Below, piece by piece: positions 31,975 to 37,896 of a DNA stretch of 64,000 nt (its first letter is position 1; each line of letters opens with the position of its first letter). Position numbers and translations under genes: made by a program. Source of the stretch: Candidatus Micrarchaeia archaeon (lineage in GTDB: Archaea > Micrarchaeota > Micrarchaeia > Burarchaeales > JAVZCV01); the NCBI GenBank assembly GCA_038874215.1, contig JAVZCV010000001.1:2738-66737 (forward strand). The letters are read 5' to 3'. The notes beneath the pieces are model-generated. The model did no database searches. It saw only the letters and a program-made list of their open reading frames with translations, and was not told the origin of the DNA.

Positions 31975-34596
31975 ATGAATACGAGCGGTTGCCACTTTCC
32001 CGATAAAATTAAGATAGATGAAGCGGCAACATGGAGCGAGCCGATTGAGAACCTTTACTCACGCCTCTCAACTTCCCCGAGCGGGCTTTCTTCAAAAGAG
32101 GCGAGGGCACGACTGAAGGTGTACGGGCAGAACGCAATACCAGAAAAGGACCGAAGAACTGCTTTTGATGTTCTCCTCTCACAGTTTGCAAGCCCGCTTC
32201 TGCTTATTCTGATAATTGCATCGGTAGTATCTGCTTTTGTTGGGGAGATATTTGACACGCTGATCATACTTGTTGTCATATCGGTAAGTGTCGTCCTCGG
32301 GTTCGTTCAGGAGTATAAATCTGAGAGAGTTTTGTCAGAGCTCAAAAGGTATTTCTCGCACCGTGCAGTCGTTCTTAGGGATGGGGAAAAGATGCAGATT
32401 GATGTGCGCGAACTTGTCCCGGGCGATGTTGTTTTTGTTCGGTTGGGTGATATCATCCCCGCGGACTTGCGTGTGATAGAAACAGAGGGAATACGGGTTG
32501 ATGAAAGTGTGCTTACGGGGGAATCACGCGAGGTTGAGAAAACGGAAGCGCCGTCAAGGTCTGCAATGAGCCCTCAAGATATAACAAACGGACTCTTCAT
32601 GGGGACAACAGTCGTTGATGGATATGCAAGGGCTCTCGTCGTTGCAACGGGTAAAGATACGTTTTTCGGCAGAACAGCAACGATTTTCAGCTCAAAAGTG
32701 CCAGAGTCTGATTTTCAGATGAACATTAAGCGCTTCGGCAACCTGCTCCTAAGGATAATCGTCGTTCTAGCGATTTTTGTATTCCTCACAAACTTTCTCC
32801 TCGGGCATGGGGAGAAAAGCCCGCTCGTTGAATCTGCCCTTTTTGCGCTCGCGATAGCTGTTGGTATCACGCCCGAAGCCCTCCCAGTGATAGTTACAGT
32901 GACACTTTCGTGGGGAAGCATGCTGCTTGCAAAGAAGAAGGTTGTTGTCAAGAAGCTCGCTGCAATAGAAGACCTTGGAGATATGGATGTTTTGTGCACC
33001 GACAAAACAGGCACGCTTACCGAAGAAAGCATTCAGATGGATAGGTATGTTGACCTTGACAGTAAGGACAGCCATGATGTTTTTGAGTATGCGTTTCTTT
33101 GCAACGCTGCTGAGGGAACGACCCACCTGAGGGGCAGCGCAATAGATGTGGCGATAAGAAGGAGCGGTATTGCATCAAAAATTGATGTTTCTCGCTTCAA
33201 AAAAATCCAAGAGGTTCCGTTTGATTTTACGAGGCGCAGAATGTCGCAGGTTGTTTCGGAGAGAGGGAGGAGGATTATCATAACAAAAGGTGAGCCTGAA
33301 TCAATCCTATCAGTATGCTCAAAAGTTAAGATGGGCGGTAGATACTACGATGTATCGGAGAAGCGTGAATATATCTTGGGGATGATTGCACGTTATGCGG
33401 ATGAAGGACAAACAACAATCGGAGTCGCATACCGTGAGATAGATGAAAAGAGAGAGTATACGAAGGAGGATGAACACGGCCTGATTTTTATAGGGTTTGT
33501 TCTTCTGAGCAATCCGCCTAAGCATGGAGTTCGCCACACTATTGAGAGGCTTAGGAAGCTTGGAATAAGGCTGAAAGTAGTAACTGGGGATGATCCGAGG
33601 CTTACGCGAAGATTATGCTATCAGATTGGTTTCGCACCTGCTGAGGACAGAGTCGTTACGGGCAATGAGATACGAAATATGAGTGAAAAGGAGCTTGCAG
33701 AAACTGTTGAGAGGTTTGATGTTTTTGCACGTGTAACGCCCGAGCAGAAGCTTGCAATCGTAGAGGCGCTGAGGAAAAACGGGCATGTGGTTGGGTTTCT
33801 TGGGGATGGAATAAACGATGCACCGGCTTTGCGCGCAGCCGATGTGGGCATATCTGTTGATACGGCAGCTGATGTCGCAAAGGAGGCGTCGCACATAATA
33901 CTTCTCAACAAGAGCTTGGGCGTGGTTTGCGATGGGGTTGAGGAAGGCCGCAACATATTCGCCAATATAACAAAGTACCTGCTCAACACCATGAGCGCAA
34001 ATCAGGGGAACATGATAACCGTGAGCCTTTCCTCTCTCTTTCTGCCATTCATTCCCCTTCTGCCCGTGCAAATACTTCTTACGAACATGCTTTCGGATAT
34101 CCCGCTTCTCAGCATATCTACGGACAATGTTGATAGGCACTATACGGAAAAACCGCAGAAGTGGGATATGAACATGCTTTTAAGGTTCATGGTGTTTTTT
34201 GGTGCGATAAGCTCGTTTTTTGATATACTCTTTATCGCAATCCTGCATTTTGTTATGAAGGTTGATGTGGACGTGTTCCGCACCGCATGGTTCTTGCTTT
34301 CTGTTCTTTCAGAAATGCTCATTCTGTTTTCTCTAAGAACGCAGTTGCCGTTTTTCAGGAGCATGCCGTCCCGCATGCTCATCGCAACATCGCTTGTCAT
34401 GATGCTTGCCTCCGTTGCGGTTGTCTATATAGCGCCCCTCTCGGAGCTCTTCCACTTTGTACCGCTCGGGGTGCCTATTCTTGCCCTTATGGGCGCCGTC
34501 CTTATTGCATATTTCGTTGCGACAGAAGTTGGCAAGTTTGTTTTCTTCTCATGCATATGCCCATCGCCAACCCCAACGGCCAAAAGTAATAAATAG
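31975..34596 (+). CDS. mgtA: Mg2+-translocating P-type ATPase
   Basis: TGES, VGITPE, DKTGTLT, PFDFTRRRMS, GDGINDAP, MSANQGN. Confidence 0.92.
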   Translation: MNTSGCHFPDKIKIDEAATWSEPIENLYSRLSTSPSGLSSKEARARLKVYGQNAIPEKDRRTAFDVLLSQFASPLLLILIIASVVSAFVGEIFDTLIILVVISVSVVLGFVQEYKSERVLSELKRYFSHRAVVLRDGEKMQIDVRELVPGDVVFVRLGDIIPADLRVIETEGIRVDESVLTGESREVEKTEAPSRSAMSPQDITNGLFMGTTVVDGYARALVVATGKDTFFGRTATIFSSKVPESDFQMNIKRFGNLLLRIIVVLAIFVFLTNFLLGHGEKSPLVESALFALAIAVGITPEALPVIVTVTLSWGSMLLAKKKVVVKKLAAIEDLGDMDVLCTDKTGTLTEESIQMDRYVDLDSKDSHDVFEYAFLCNAAEGTTHLRGSAIDVAIRRSGIASKIDVSRFKKIQEVPFDFTRRRMSQVVSERGRRIIITKGEPESILSVCSKVKMGGRYYDVSEKREYILGMIARYADEGQTTIGVAYREIDEKREYTKEDEHGLIFIGFVLLSNPPKHGVRHTIERLRKLGIRLKVVTGDDPRLTRRLCYQIGFAPAEDRVVTGNEIRNMSEKELAETVERFDVFARVTPEQKLAIVEALRKNGHVVGFLGDGINDAPALRAADVGISVDTAADVAKEASHIILLNKSLGVVCDGVEEGRNIFANITKYLLNTMSANQGNMITVSLSSLFLPFIPLLPVQILLTNMLSDIPLLSISTDNVDRHYTEKPQKWDMNMLLRFMVFFGAISSFFDILFIAILHFVMKVDVDVFRTAWFLLSVLSEMLILFSLRTQLPFFRSMPSRMLIATSLVMMLASVAVVYIAPLSELFHFVPLGVPILALMGAVLIAYFVATEVGKFVFFSCICPSPTPTAKSNK

Positions 34597-34628: not shown

Positions 34629-34892
34629 GTGGCTGCTGGAGAAATCATAACCAACCTTCTTCTTGCAGTTGTTTATACGGTTGTTGGGGCTGTTCTTGGG
34701 ATGTTATTTCTGAGTATTGCAACGCTCATTGTGCCAAGGATAGTTGACATGATTACGCCAAAGATAGATGACGAGAAAGAGATGCTTCGCGGAAACCTTG
34801 CTGTTGCAACCTATGTTGCACAGATAACGCAGGCAGTCATAATCGGCATGAGCATCATAATAGCCGCGGCGGTAATCGGGGGCATATTCTAA
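34629..34892 (+). CDS. DUF350-family small membrane protein
   Basis: DMITPKID...EMLRGNLAVA...IIGMSIIIAAAV; GGAGGTGA SD. Confidence 0.8.
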   Translation: MAAGEIITNLLLAVVYTVVGAVLGMLFLSIATLIVPRIVDMITPKIDDEKEMLRGNLAVATYVAQITQAVIIGMSIIIAAAVIGGIF

Positions 34893-34900
34893 GTGGAAAA

Positions 34901-37054
34901 ATGAAGCGTATATTGTTTTTTTTACTATTGGCTTCCTTTTTATTGTCTTTTTCTCCAGCATACGCGAGGGCGGGCGGGGGTTGCTTTCTTCCAGATACGC
35001 TTATTCTTGCGGCAAATGGGACGCTGGTTCCGATAGGTAGTTTGAAAAGTGGGGATGTTCTTCTTGCATTTACCGAAAATGAGCAGATAGTTAATGTAAG
35101 CGTAGATGAAGCGTACGGCATAGAGGTAGACGGGTATTACGTGATAGGTATAGAAAAAATAGAAGTGAAAGTTACGGGGGAACATCCATTCTACGTTGGA
35201 GATGGTAAATTCAAGGTGGCAGAGGAGATTGAAATCGGTGATTATGTTTTCGTTTTCAATGGAACAAGTCTTTCTCGGCAGATGGTTGTGGGAAAAAGAA
35301 AGGTGAATGAGAGCGGAGTTAAGGTATACAATTTGAGGACTGGCTGGCCGAACACATACTTTGCGAATTTTATTGCAGTGCATAATAAAGGGGGAGGAGG
35401 CGGGGGCGGTGGAGGGGGAGTTAGATCTTCATCTAGCAAGCACTACGAATCGCCATACAGAGAAGATACATACTGTGGAGCTGTAAAGACGTTTGAGCTG
35501 AAGAATGGGAGCAAGATAAACGGAAGCGAGTGCATCTACGTACATTACCACAAAACGCAAAGCCCACAGGCAACAAGGCTTTCAGACTGTGTTCGCACTA
35601 ATTCAGATTCATGGAAGCAGTGCGAGAGTCTTGCGGGTTTCGCTTTGAGTCATGAATTGCAGTTTAGGTGTGCAAACGATGAGGAATGCGCGGGTCTGGA
35701 TTATATTGAATTGAAGAATGGCATGCGTGTGAAGGTTATAAAGCCGCTAGTAACTTTTGACTGTTGTACTTGTTGCTGTGTTGGCATATTCTTTATGGCT
35801 TTTGGTTTGTTTTTTGTGGGCGGAATTGCAAATTCGGTCTTGTATGTTGTGAGTGGTGGGAGGTTGGGCTTCCGCCCATACCGCACTGGCGAAAATTTGG
35901 ACTATTGCTACTCCCCTGCACAGATTGATGCGAAGGTAGCGAGAACGAAAAAGCTGCTTGATTACCTCGCGGGCATTGACAGAATGTGGGAACCAGAGCT
36001 TCTTAAAAAGACTGCAAGGGAGACTTTTACCAAAATGCAGAGATGCTGGGAGGCACGCGATTACTCGGAAATGCGGCCCCTCATGATGCCGTACCTGTAT
36101 GCGCAACATGTAGCGCAGATAGAATCAATGAAGCGGAACCATGAGATAAACAAGCTTGAAGGGCTTGAAATTAGGAGAGTAGATATAGTGCATCTCAGGC
36201 ATTATGCGAAGAAGAACCAGCAGGAATTCACGGCGCTTGTAGAAGCAAGCGTTCGGGACTATTATGTTGATGACAGAACGGGTGCATTTCTACGGGGAGA
36301 CAAAGTTCCAGCAACTTTTCAGGAGTTTTTGGTTTTCCAAAGGCAGGAGGATAGATGGCTTCTGAGGGAGATAAACCAGACCCGCGAGTCAGATGCGCTT
36401 AGGGCAGAGAATTTCGTTGAGGAACTTACGCCGCTGCAGCTCCAGAACATATATGGTTCTGCTGCGCAAAAGCCAACCGAAAAAGCCCCATGGTTAGATG
36501 ATTCGCTCGCACAGAAGGGCGAAAAGGTACATAGAATGCTGAATTTCCTCTCAACAACAGACAAAAGCTGGGATGAGGATTTCATGAAGGAAAGCGCAAG
36601 AAGGATATTCGTTGAGGTTCTAAGCGCTTTTGAAAAACGGGATATTTCGGCTCTCGCGCCTTATCTTATGCCCGAGGCATTGGAGTTTTACAACGGGCAG
36701 ATTGGAAAAATGAAGGAAGAAAACAGGACTATTGAATACAGAAACATGTGCGTGAGGAAGGTTGAGATAATCCTTGTAAAAAACTTTGCTGACAGCGATA
36801 AAGACGAGTTCACGTGCAGGATAAGTGCGCACGCACAGAAGATAGAGAGAAAGGGAGGCGTGGTAGTTCATAGGGACCCTGATGTCGTGCCTTTTGAGGA
36901 ATATTTGACATTCCAGAAGCAAAAAGGCGAGTGGAAGCTTAGGGAAGTGCAACCGCCAGCACGAGCGCATGCAATGATAGTGGCGGAAAACGTGGATGAG
37001 GAGGTTTCAAAAGAACAGGTGCAGTGGTATTACACAAAGGATAGAGCGCTCTGA
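34901..37054 (+). CDS. Exported Hint-domain protein with TM segment and tandem Tim44-like domains
   Basis: Signal peptide (AYA|RAGGG), Hint domain, Gly10, Cys-rich region, TM. Then two repeats of LL.YL...D..W...AR..F ... F.E...F......W.L.E. Confidence 0.85.
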   Translation: MKRILFFLLLASFLLSFSPAYARAGGGCFLPDTLILAANGTLVPIGSLKSGDVLLAFTENEQIVNVSVDEAYGIEVDGYYVIGIEKIEVKVTGEHPFYVGDGKFKVAEEIEIGDYVFVFNGTSLSRQMVVGKRKVNESGVKVYNLRTGWPNTYFANFIAVHNKGGGGGGGGGGVRSSSSKHYESPYREDTYCGAVKTFELKNGSKINGSECIYVHYHKTQSPQATRLSDCVRTNSDSWKQCESLAGFALSHELQFRCANDEECAGLDYIELKNGMRVKVIKPLVTFDCCTCCCVGIFFMAFGLFFVGGIANSVLYVVSGGRLGFRPYRTGENLDYCYSPAQIDAKVARTKKLLDYLAGIDRMWEPELLKKTARETFTKMQRCWEARDYSEMRPLMMPYLYAQHVAQIESMKRNHEINKLEGLEIRRVDIVHLRHYAKKNQQEFTALVEASVRDYYVDDRTGAFLRGDKVPATFQEFLVFQRQEDRWLLREINQTRESDALRAENFVEELTPLQLQNIYGSAAQKPTEKAPWLDDSLAQKGEKVHRMLNFLSTTDKSWDEDFMKESARRIFVEVLSAFEKRDISALAPYLMPEALEFYNGQIGKMKEENRTIEYRNMCVRKVEIILVKNFADSDKDEFTCRISAHAQKIERKGGVVVHRDPDVVPFEEYLTFQKQKGEWKLREVQPPARAHAMIVAENVDEEVSKEQVQWYYTKDRAL
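34982..35386 (+). other. Hint (intein-like/BIL) domain, 135 aa, no endonuclease, +1 residue Lys
   Basis: Block A CFLPDTLI, block B VTGEHPFYV, block F VYNL, block G YFANFIAVHN, followed by K. Confidence 0.9.
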
Positions 37055-37058
37055 TGTG

Positions 37059-37457
37059 CTATTTTATTACTGAAAGCGCCATACTTTCAATGCGGGAATA
37101 GTCTTCTTTGCTTCTTTTTTTCAGCCTGCGCATTTTTTTTATCCCCAAGCGATTTATGGGAATCGGAGTTTCGCTAAAAACGATGAATTCCGAGTAGCTT
37201 TTTGCGCCAGCCTTCTTTACTGCGCTTTCAAAATTTCTGACGCCCGCAACACGCAGAAGCATCTCGTTTTCAAGTTTTCTGGCTATGTTGCAACCTTCTT
37301 CAAAGGAACGCTTTGCCTGAAAATATGCGAATTTTACCTCCAACTCTGAGCTTATCGCATTCTTGTCAAAAGCCTGCACTATTCCTCCACGGGCTTCTCT
37401 TATTCTTTTTAAGAATTCGTGTATTGGCAGGTCCGTCTCCACTACCCGTATGTGCAT
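37059..37457 (-). CDS. cgi121: KEOPS complex subunit Cgi121
   Basis: VQAFD, NIARKLENEMLLRVAGVRN..AVKKAG, ESMAL. Confidence 0.8.
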   Translation of the reverse strand: MHIRVVETDLPIHEFLKRIREARGGIVQAFDKNAISSELEVKFAYFQAKRSFEEGCNIARKLENEMLLRVAGVRNFESAVKKAGAKSYSEFIVFSETPIPINRLGIKKMRRLKKRSKEDYSRIESMALSVIK

Positions 37458-37515
37458 GTAAACAGCATTGAATCAAACTTTATATAGTTTCCTCTGTATA
37501 AATTTAACGATTTTT

Positions 37516-37896
37516 ATGGAGGAATTTCACGGAAGGTCTGGAAGGAAATCTTCGGGTACGGGTGGTAGGATAAAGAAACACAGGGACAAAAGGCTATTTG
37601 AGATAGGGGGAGTTTTCACTGCGACGAAGGTTGGGGATTCTGACGCGAGGTTTGTAAGCCGTACGAGAGGCGGTGGTACCAAGGTAAGGCTCAGGCAGGC
37701 TTCTTTCGTTAATGTGGTAACAAAGGATGGAATAAAACGTGCGAAGATACGCACTGTTCTGGAAACGCCCGATAACAGGCACTATGCAAGGCAGAACATA
37801 ATAACAAAAGGCACGATTCTTGATACGGAATTCGGGAAGGTTAGGGTAACGAACCGCGTTGGGCAAGATGGAGTAATAAACGGAGTGCTTGTTTGA
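37516..37896 (+). CDS. rps8e: 30S ribosomal protein S8e
   Basis: RTRGG, RQNIITKGTI, VTNRVGQDGVINGVL. Confidence 0.96.
   Translation: MEEFHGRSGRKSSGTGGRIKKHRDKRLFEIGGVFTATKVGDSDARFVSRTRGGGTKVRLRQASFVNVVTKDGIKRAKIRTVLETPDNRHYARQNIITKGTILDTEFGKVRVTNRVGQDGVINGVLV

Follow-up and report, generated by a model that had tools for sequence, protein, structure and literature searches.

What is an intein-like Hint domain doing in the predicted exported tail of a membrane protein, directly ahead of an invariant lysine? The question is raised by two adjacent genes in a 64,000-nt stretch of DNA (the window), which covers positions 2,738 to 66,737 of contig JAVZCV010000001.1 from Candidatus Micrarchaeia archaeon (assembly GCA_038874215.1; 1.13 Mb, 38 contigs, 91% complete). 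The first gene encodes an 87-residue DUF350-like membrane protein. The second encodes a 717-residue protein in which a signal peptide, the pentapeptide RAGGG, a Hint domain and a Lys-Gly10 tail precede a transmembrane (TM) helix and two Tim44-like domains. Conservation across the family argues strongly that the Hint is active and kept by its host. With modest confidence, we read it as a host-kept, self-excising element that rejoins RAGGG to Lys-Gly10.

Architecture of the Hint/Tim44 protein

The features of the gene pair are given below in window coordinates (ORF, open reading frame; AF2, AlphaFold2; pLDDT, predicted local distance difference test; BIL, bacterial intein-like).

34629-34892, + strand: DUF350-like small membrane protein, 87 aa, GTG start (ORF; subthreshold Pfam DUF350)
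34901-37054 (stop included), + strand: Hint/Tim44-like membrane protein, 717 aa, ATG start (ORF, Pfam, AF2)
34901-34966, + strand: predicted signal peptide, residues 1-22, ending A-Y-A (hydrophobic core, -3/-1 rule)
34967-34981, + strand: N-extein RAGGG, residues 23-27 (translation, family leaders)
34982-35386, + strand: Hint, type A BIL-like, family type B, residues 28-162 (Pfam, 2LWY, Foldseek, pLDDT >90)
35387-35419, + strand: Lys163 (+1 residue), then ten Gly (164-173) (translation)
35453-35740, + strand: Cys-rich ectodomain, residues ~185-280, six Cys (alignment, AF2 pLDDT 91)
35762-35860, + strand: CCTCCC cluster and TM helix, residues 288-320 (hydropathy, AF2 helix)
35915-36379, + strand: Tim44-like domain 1, residues ~339-493 (Pfam Tim44 355-493; AF2 helices and sheet)
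36482-36952, + strand: Tim44-like domain 2, residues ~528-684 (second Pfam Tim44 stretch; AF2)

Every element described in an earlier, sequence-only reading of this DNA is present: the AYA signal-peptide end, RAGGG, the Hint, Lys-Gly10, the Cys-rich segment, the CCTCCC-TM segment, the two Tim44 repeats and a gap of 8 nt (34893-34900) between the genes. Pfam PT-HINT matches residues 35-156 (E 9e-9, 36.1 bits, cut-off 27.7), in agreement with a genome-wide search, and Pfam Tim44 matches the 717-aa ORF in two stretches (E 1.1e-33, 116.8 bits, cut-off 29.6). The upstream protein aligns with positions 4-66 of the 133 positions of the DUF350 model at 24.1 bits (E 4.1e-5), under the cut-off of 26. 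The NCBIfam Tim44/TimA adaptor model matches residues 528-676 below its cut-off. Genome-wide profile search finds a single Hint and a single Tim44 protein in the host.

The Hint is 135 aa long, endonuclease-free and without an insert. Its catalytic residues are Cys28, the TGEH of block B (T-G-E-H-P) and the terminal His161-Asn162. The AF2 model (mean pLDDT 85) has a compact Hint (28-162, pLDDT >90) and, after it, a Gly linker that is disordered. The ectodomain comes next, and beyond the TM helix (293-317) lie two domains of NTF2-like fold. By sequence, the domain matches the C. thermocellum BIL 2LWY end to end (E 2.3e-10), and its features are far beyond chance; inteins and hedgehog match only at E >0.02. 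By fold, Foldseek places BIL2 (6Y75) at the top (E 1.3e-10, TM-score 0.83), along with 2LWY (TM-score 0.88, root-mean-square deviation 1.9, 32% identity); both rank above the DnaB mini-inteins and hedgehog.

Conserved junctions and orthologous Hints

A whole-protein search, in which the 8000 candidates with the most words in common were scored, returned at least 725 homologues. All 120 listed homologues combine PT-HINT and Tim44, and most are 860-1150 aa long; the closest named relatives are Micrarchaeia. An exhaustive search with the Tim44 half gave 1251 representative clusters at E <= 0.001, 383 at E <= 1e-10 and 134 at E <= 1e-30. The locus sample consists of the best 80 of 159 relatives from a scan with one genome per species. 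Two of these loci are from Micrarchaeia and the remainder from Bacteria, mostly metagenome-assembled genomes (MAGs), with just one locus from a cultured organism. At least 11 named bacterial phyla are represented, 10 among the listed loci (Verrucomicrobiota, Lentisphaerota, Kiritimatiellota, Planctomycetota, Thermodesulfobacteriota, Myxococcota, Nitrospirota, Chloroflexota, Acidobacteriota and Pseudomonadota) plus Candidatus Deferrimicrobiota.

A Hint hidden Markov model (HMM), built from 150 of 191 pattern-found Hint segments, detects one to four Hints per protein, arranged back to back. Among 62 proteins with intact leaders, 33 have three Hints, 14 have two, eight have four and seven have one. 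The sequence-only reading had made its case depend on conservation of the Hint junctions in homologues, and this conservation is found. In 189 full-length Hints from the 80 loci and the window, both the terminal His-Asn and the Lys at +1 are present without exception, and Cys1 is present in 188, the remaining copy reading Gly. Cys1 is the sole Cys in 141 of these Hints. The linkers between Hints read K-G(1-7) throughout (KG 57, KGGG 32, KGGGGG 13, KGGGG 5, KGG 4, KGGGGGGG 2).

The N-extein is also constrained, with RGGGG in 64 of 66 family leaders and RAGGG in the other two. The signal-peptide cleavage site was placed by the -3/-1 rule, which all 66 leaders satisfy (position -1: A 56, G 9, S 1; position -3: A 31, V 15, S 12, L 7, G 1). 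Past the last Hint, K-G(2-13) leads into a stretch rich in Ser, Arg, His and Gly. A single TM helix comes next, with basic residues after it, and the motif ENLDYCYP opens the Tim44 part. This order of leader, TM helix, basic residues and Tim44 part fits an N-out/C-in topology, in which the N-terminal tail would be exported and the Tim44-like domains would be cytoplasmic.

A tree of the 189 Hints resolves three position-specific clades with supports of 0.95-0.99. Clade A (53 Hints, support 0.95) is always first in the array. Clade B (73 Hints, support 0.99) is second in multi-Hint proteins and is the only Hint in six of the seven one-Hint proteins, the window protein included. Clade C (61 Hints, support 0.97) occupies the third and fourth positions. 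Two first-position Hints from Micrarchaeia contigs could not be assigned to a clade. Cys1, T-x-E-H-P and V-H-N are common to all three types. Since the clades are orthologous by position, the array is old and has been inherited with its host gene. The nearest relatives of the window protein carry four Hints (G007) or three (G004 and G014), so that the window copy is a reduced form in which the core type B alone is left.

Close homologues that seemed to lack a Hint were followed up and rejected as Hint-less forms: almost every one is either a fragment from a short contig or a gene call beginning inside the TM segment. At four loci (L045, L051, L089 and L090) the Hints are present in a shifted frame or beside a run of N, in or near Gly-coding repeats. 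Arrays split by frameshifts or N-runs probably give rise to database entries of family members that wrongly appear to lack a Hint.

Predicted processing of the exported tail

We propose the following course of events. Sec export and signal-peptidase cleavage would leave RAGGG at the N-terminus. The Hint would fold outside the membrane and convert the Gly27-Cys28 peptide bond into a thioester. Cyclization of Asn162 would then sever the Asn162-Lys163 bond, and an amine of the invariant Lys163 would resolve the thioester, joining RAGGG to Lys-Gly10 and freeing the Hint. The attacking group may be the alpha-amine, which has been proposed to act in type A BILs, or the epsilon-amine, the group joined in the Tetrahymena BIL2 reaction. 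The mature exterior would be a short basic Gly-rich tail, with a disulfide-rich ectodomain added in the archaeal lineage. Inside, the two Tim44-like domains would act with the DUF350-like partner.

The residues for both cleavage steps are invariant, apart from the single Gly noted above, and Lys sits at the position of the second nucleophile of inteins. Rejoining is favored, by indirect argument, over release or transfer to an outside acceptor, three outcomes that sequence alone does not separate, because the five-residue N-extein is itself conserved and because the N-termini of some Hint-less tandem-Tim44 relatives resemble the expected spliced product. In one of them (P0315), a signal-peptide Ala is followed by RGGGGSGGSRSGGGG, a TM segment and two Tim44 domains; another (P0222) starts with TRGGGGGHSGGGG. 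P0315 has Ser rather than Lys after RGGGG, which suggests that the Lys belongs to the reaction and not to the mature tail. Granted an active, host-kept Hint, we lean slightly towards ligation rather than cleavage alone. Granted ligation in turn, the epsilon-amine is somewhat less probable than the alpha-amine. The full proposal that the epsilon-amine of each +1 Lys is the nucleophile, so that every Hint would leave a (Gly)n-epsilon-Lys isopeptide junction and a free Lys alpha-amine, draws on the analogy with BIL2 and is unlikely.

The type A BILs are the nearest known relatives of the domain and share with it a length of about 135 aa, Cys1, T-x-x-H in block B, a terminal His-Asn, and the lack of an endonuclease and of Cys, Ser or Thr at +1. 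The C. thermocellum BIL was reportedly described with Ala at +1 by Dassa in 2004. According to a review (PMC4031507; see also PMC7664689), type A BILs end in His-Asn and can splice, with cleavage dominating; the review gives as the proposed route one through a thioester and Asn cyclization, after which the freed amino group attacks the thioester (PMC4031507). The BILs described so far occur in secreted proteins that are not conserved and are often toxin-like, and within these in hypervariable regions (PMC7765530). In contrast, the Hint of the window family always occupies the same position in a membrane protein that is conserved, in arrays of one to four orthologous copies with invariant flanks (GGG↓C and HN↓K). 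Profile score, catalytic residues and the +1 residue place the domain with the type A BILs and PT-HINT, whereas its setting is not a hypervariable region.

The BIL2 of the Tetrahymena BUBL locus (6Y75/6TMM) is a further precedent. Section 2.4 of PMC8616854 describes an ATP-free reaction of BIL2 that ends in an isopeptide bond with the epsilon-amine of a Lys, and reports conjugation of the ubiquitin-like ubl4 to Lys of several substrates. As in the window family, the BIL stands in a tandem, repeated arrangement and its N-extein ends in glycines. The BUBL system is eukaryotic and cytoplasmic and has ubiquitin-like exteins, whereas the window exteins are RAGGG and Lys-Gly10, outside the membrane; neither Pfam nor the translation reveals a ubiquitin-like domain in the window protein. 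The two Hints share 20% sequence identity, and the candidate Lys in the window protein is the +1 residue itself.

Canonical inteins have Cys, Ser or Thr at +1, occupy a conserved site of a host enzyme and often contain a homing endonuclease. The window Hint differs in its +1 Lys, its site in a Gly-rich tail and its 135-aa length without insert, and it scores 21.3 bits against NCBIfam intein_Nterm (cut-off 24.5). It could still be a selfish or decayed mini-intein that persists in a tolerant Gly-rich linker, as the fold resemblance to DnaB mini-inteins (E ~1e-9) and the varying Hint number among relatives would allow. We give this very little credence: there is no homing endonuclease and no +1 Cys, Ser or Thr, the insertion point and flanks are shared by no fewer than 11 named phyla of Bacteria and one order of Archaea, the Hint types are orthologous by position, and the host genome has just one Hint. 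Furthermore, 79 of the 80 loci either contain one or more full Hints or are cut by the end of a contig or by a frameshift; the exception (L072) retains the last ~25 Hint residues. The sequence-only reading, which took the Hint for a host-maintained element rather than a selfish intein, thus holds up on the missing endonuclease, the fixed site, the orthologous copies and the invariant junctions. The domain might instead be a structural ectodomain that merely keeps the Hint fold and catalyzes nothing. This is just as improbable, given that the catalytic positions (Cys1, the block B Thr and His, the penultimate His and the terminal Asn) are strictly kept in 188-189 of 189 copies.

Hedgehog Hint domains transfer their N-extein to other molecules, and by a similar route an outside nucleophile could attack the Gly27 thioester. 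The acceptor might be a lipid head-group amine, an amine of the cell wall or S-layer, or the Lys-Gly tail of a second molecule, and the outcome would be an envelope tagged with RAGGG (in relatives, with the upstream Hints) or cross-linked copies of the protein. The window Hint resembles Hog in its fold (6TYY, E 5.6e-9; 1AT0), its Gly↓Cys junction and its secreted-protein context, and its N-extein ends in Gly-Gly, like ubiquitin. BIL2, the top fold match, likewise moves its N-extein to other molecules (PMC8616854). Transfer is nevertheless improbable. Unlike Hog, the domain has neither a sterol-recognition region nor another adaptor region, Lys-Gly10 directly follows His-Asn, and the C-terminal His-Asn provides a second cleavage site; the Pfam Hint model scores 22.8 bits, below its cut-off of 29.7. 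The five-residue cargo has no obvious use, and the amine of Lys163, in cis beside the active site, should outcompete outside acceptors. It is somewhat unlikely, though less so than transfer, that the Hint only cleaves, cutting one or both ends so that RAGGG is lost and the mature protein starts with Lys-Gly10; the Hint would then be a removable pro-domain or a released extracellular product. An intact Cys1 and His-Asn suffice for this, and type A BILs give mainly cleavage products (PMC4031507; PMC7664689). Cleavage alone leaves unexplained the near-invariant N-extein and its match to the start of the Hint-less P0315, as well as the invariance of the +1 Lys across three anciently separated Hint types.

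Several points weigh against rejoining. Ligation may be a minor reaction, since published type A BILs mostly cleave (PMC4031507; PMC7664689). The invariant Lys could serve the rate of Asn cyclization or recognition by another factor, and an extracellular thioester may simply hydrolyze. Both the signal-peptide cleavage and the topology are inferences. Hint number varies from one to four, and the window genome has lost two or three Hints that its relatives keep, so that the role of the Hint would not scale strictly with copy number. Among 32 Hint-less N-termini, there is one clear RGGGG leader (P0315) and two partial ones; 15 are of the QAGR type, and the rest begin at or near the TM segment. 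The sequence-only reading had regarded a RAGGG-type Gly-rich leader as common in bacterial Tim44-domain proteins. It fits P0315 and P0222/P0223, and in part P0286 and P0288, and fails for most of the 32.

The QAGR-type leader is itself conserved. Fifteen of the 16 single-Tim44 proteins among the 32 (224-315 aa; P0309-P0358, P0350 excepted) have a signal peptide followed by Q-(A/P)-G-(R/E)-(Y/F/L), usually then (I/V)-P, Gly/His-rich stretches and a TM segment; P0347 reads QAGRLPVP. These proteins are distant relatives of the Tim44 half and have another conserved tail that is probably exported.

Partner gene, archaeal lineage and meaning

In 70 of the 80 loci, from both Bacteria and Archaea, the Hint/Tim44 gene is preceded on its own strand by a DUF350-like ORF, so the gene linkage on which the sequence-only reading relied does recur. 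Nine of the ten other loci have no upstream DNA. The tenth is L072 (4216-7155), from a Thermoguttaceae MAG (Planctomycetota), where an unrelated N-terminal region bearing a signal peptide runs in frame into the final 25 Hint residues. HN↓K is retained, Cys1 is lost and the upstream DUF350 gene is absent. Either the gene was rearranged in nature or the assembly is chimeric at this locus.

In archaeal relatives, the gap between the two genes is 8-12 nt, and in the window a Shine-Dalgarno-like site, GGAGGTGA, stands ahead of the GTG of the DUF350-like gene. An alignment of 42 homologues of the partner gives a mean column identity of 68%, with an invariant loop, TP.IDE.KE..RGN.AVA.Y, linking its two hydrophobic helices. 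The partner resembles YjfL/DUF350 in its subthreshold Pfam similarity, small size and hydrophobicity. It is half their size, with two helices, and stands in a Hint-Tim44 context instead of PspA/polyamine operons; DUF350/YjfL proteins occur in envelope-related operons and PspA/polyamine contexts, with 4TM and 8TM forms (PMC11237479). The Tim44 half resembles Tim44 and bacterial TimA-type proteins in its N-terminal membrane anchor followed by a Tim44-like fold. Unlike these, the window protein has a tandem Tim44 duplication and an exported, Hint-bearing tail. Yeast and human Tim44 structures match weakly (E ~0.03), the TimA equivalog (NF033778) scores 26.4 bits against a cut-off of 200, and a protein-import role is neither known nor implied. 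A complex prediction between the DUF350-like protein and residues 285-717 scored 0.00, and nothing was drawn from it. Taken from the sequences, the type I membrane protein and its DUF350-like partner form a conserved membrane module shared by Bacteria and Archaea. We suspect, with low confidence, a role in membrane or envelope maintenance.

LemA (E 7e-57) adjoins the module in 31 of the 64 loci with room upstream. It is confined to a deltaproteobacterial-type clade (all 19 Thermodesulfobacteriota loci with room), is absent from Planctomycetes-Verrucomicrobia-Chlamydiae (PVC)-group and archaeal loci, and was not found in the host genome, which is 91% complete. LemA was considered as a third core gene and rejected because it occurs in one bacterial clade only; it is accessory instead. 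In the 31 loci, within L020-L091, the LemA gene lies 11-154 nt upstream of the DUF350 gene (e.g. L029, 3078-3689).

Other neighbors differ between relatives. In the window, a magnesium-type P-type ATPase (31975-34596) lies directly before the DUF350-like gene, as it does in G007; in G004 its place upstream of the module is taken by a CorA-like Mg2+ transporter (Pfam E 1.4e-23). Magnesium-transporter neighbors in relatives lie at L009 3-1172 and L011 2292-3278. It may be by chance that two unlike magnesium-transport genes adjoin this module in related archaea. Downstream of the pair is a weak CGI-121-like (KEOPS subunit) ORF (37059-37457, - strand; Pfam E 0.0028, below cut-off), divergent from a ribosomal protein S8e ORF (37468-37896, + strand). 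The S8e start codon may be further downstream, because the listed ORF has ~25 extra residues before the Pfam match. These neighboring genes mark the host as an archaeon. PADLOC defense-system models gave zero matches for either protein of the pair. In a search of sequencing runs, one DNA run labelled hot springs metagenome contains 0.97 of the words, and no RNA run is listed.

Within its archaeal phylum, the gene is rare. Of the 301 genomes that the phylum comprises, the Tim44-half search finds it in 4, which represent 3 of 129 genera and a single order of Micrarchaeia. The whole-protein search finds it in 5 of 41 genomes, one of these being a weak Hint-only match. In an IQ-TREE phylogeny of 68 sequences, which left out 12 of the 80 loci because the anchor motif or length filter missed them, the five archaeal rows are monophyletic (Shimodaira-Hasegawa-like approximate likelihood-ratio test, SH-aLRT, 100), with a long stem, and adjoin one Planctomycetota sequence (94). 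The narrow archaeal spread against at least 11 bacterial phyla suggests that Micrarchaeia acquired the module from Bacteria; the tree is only midpoint-rooted and does not identify the donor.

The Cys-rich ectodomain is found only in Micrarchaeia-type members, as judged from the listed homologues, seven aligned close homologues and the 80 loci. It spans ~105 aa between the Gly run and the TM segment and contains two NGS sequons and six Cys (192, 211, 230, 241, 257 and 263), all invariant in archaeal members. The best Foldseek match has E 0.14, atlas TM-scores are at most 0.43 and Pfam gives zero matches. VIA-align returns T-fold enzymes at best (Z 3.7), and stomatin/flotillin (SPFH/Band 7 core) at Z 2.8-2.9. 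Both look-alikes were rejected, as Z does not exceed 3.7 and there is no convincing PDB match. This disulfide-type ectodomain is modeled with confidence (pLDDT 91) and was assigned no fold. At the outer edge of the TM segment, the CCTCCC cluster (288-293) opens a hydrophobic stretch of ~283-320. None of the seven close homologues in the alignment has this cluster, so that among them it is unique to the window protein; a metal site, acylation or disulfides are guesses at its purpose.

Full-text literature searches around Tim44, Hint/BIL domains, DUF350 and LemA found no paper on this architecture. As no paper was found, the two-gene Hint/Tim44-DUF350 module appears to be widespread but undescribed. 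New here are the archaeal clade, the minimal one-Hint form and the ectodomain without fold match, as well as the orthology of Hint types A, B and C with B as the core, and the isopeptide precedent of BIL2.

To our knowledge, the biological purpose of bacterial intein-like domains has been an open question ever since their description. The family provides a conserved, host-kept BIL setting, with fixed Gly↓Cys and His-Asn↓Lys junctions, a constant partner and one to four copies. The window protein is its minimal form, with one Hint, a five-residue N-extein and Lys-Gly10, so that a single small reporter would suffice to test the chemistry directly. Should ligation through Lys prove true, it would be a new natural, extracellular, ATP-free protein-ligation reaction and a possible protein-engineering tool. 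If, in addition, the epsilon-amine is used, prokaryotes would have an energy-free counterpart of the Tetrahymena BIL2 reaction that takes place outside the cytoplasm. In relatives with two to four Hints, the product would then be a short, branched chain of Gly and Lys at the outer side of the membrane, and the one-Hint archaeal protein would be the simplest natural system for 'isopeptide protein splicing'.

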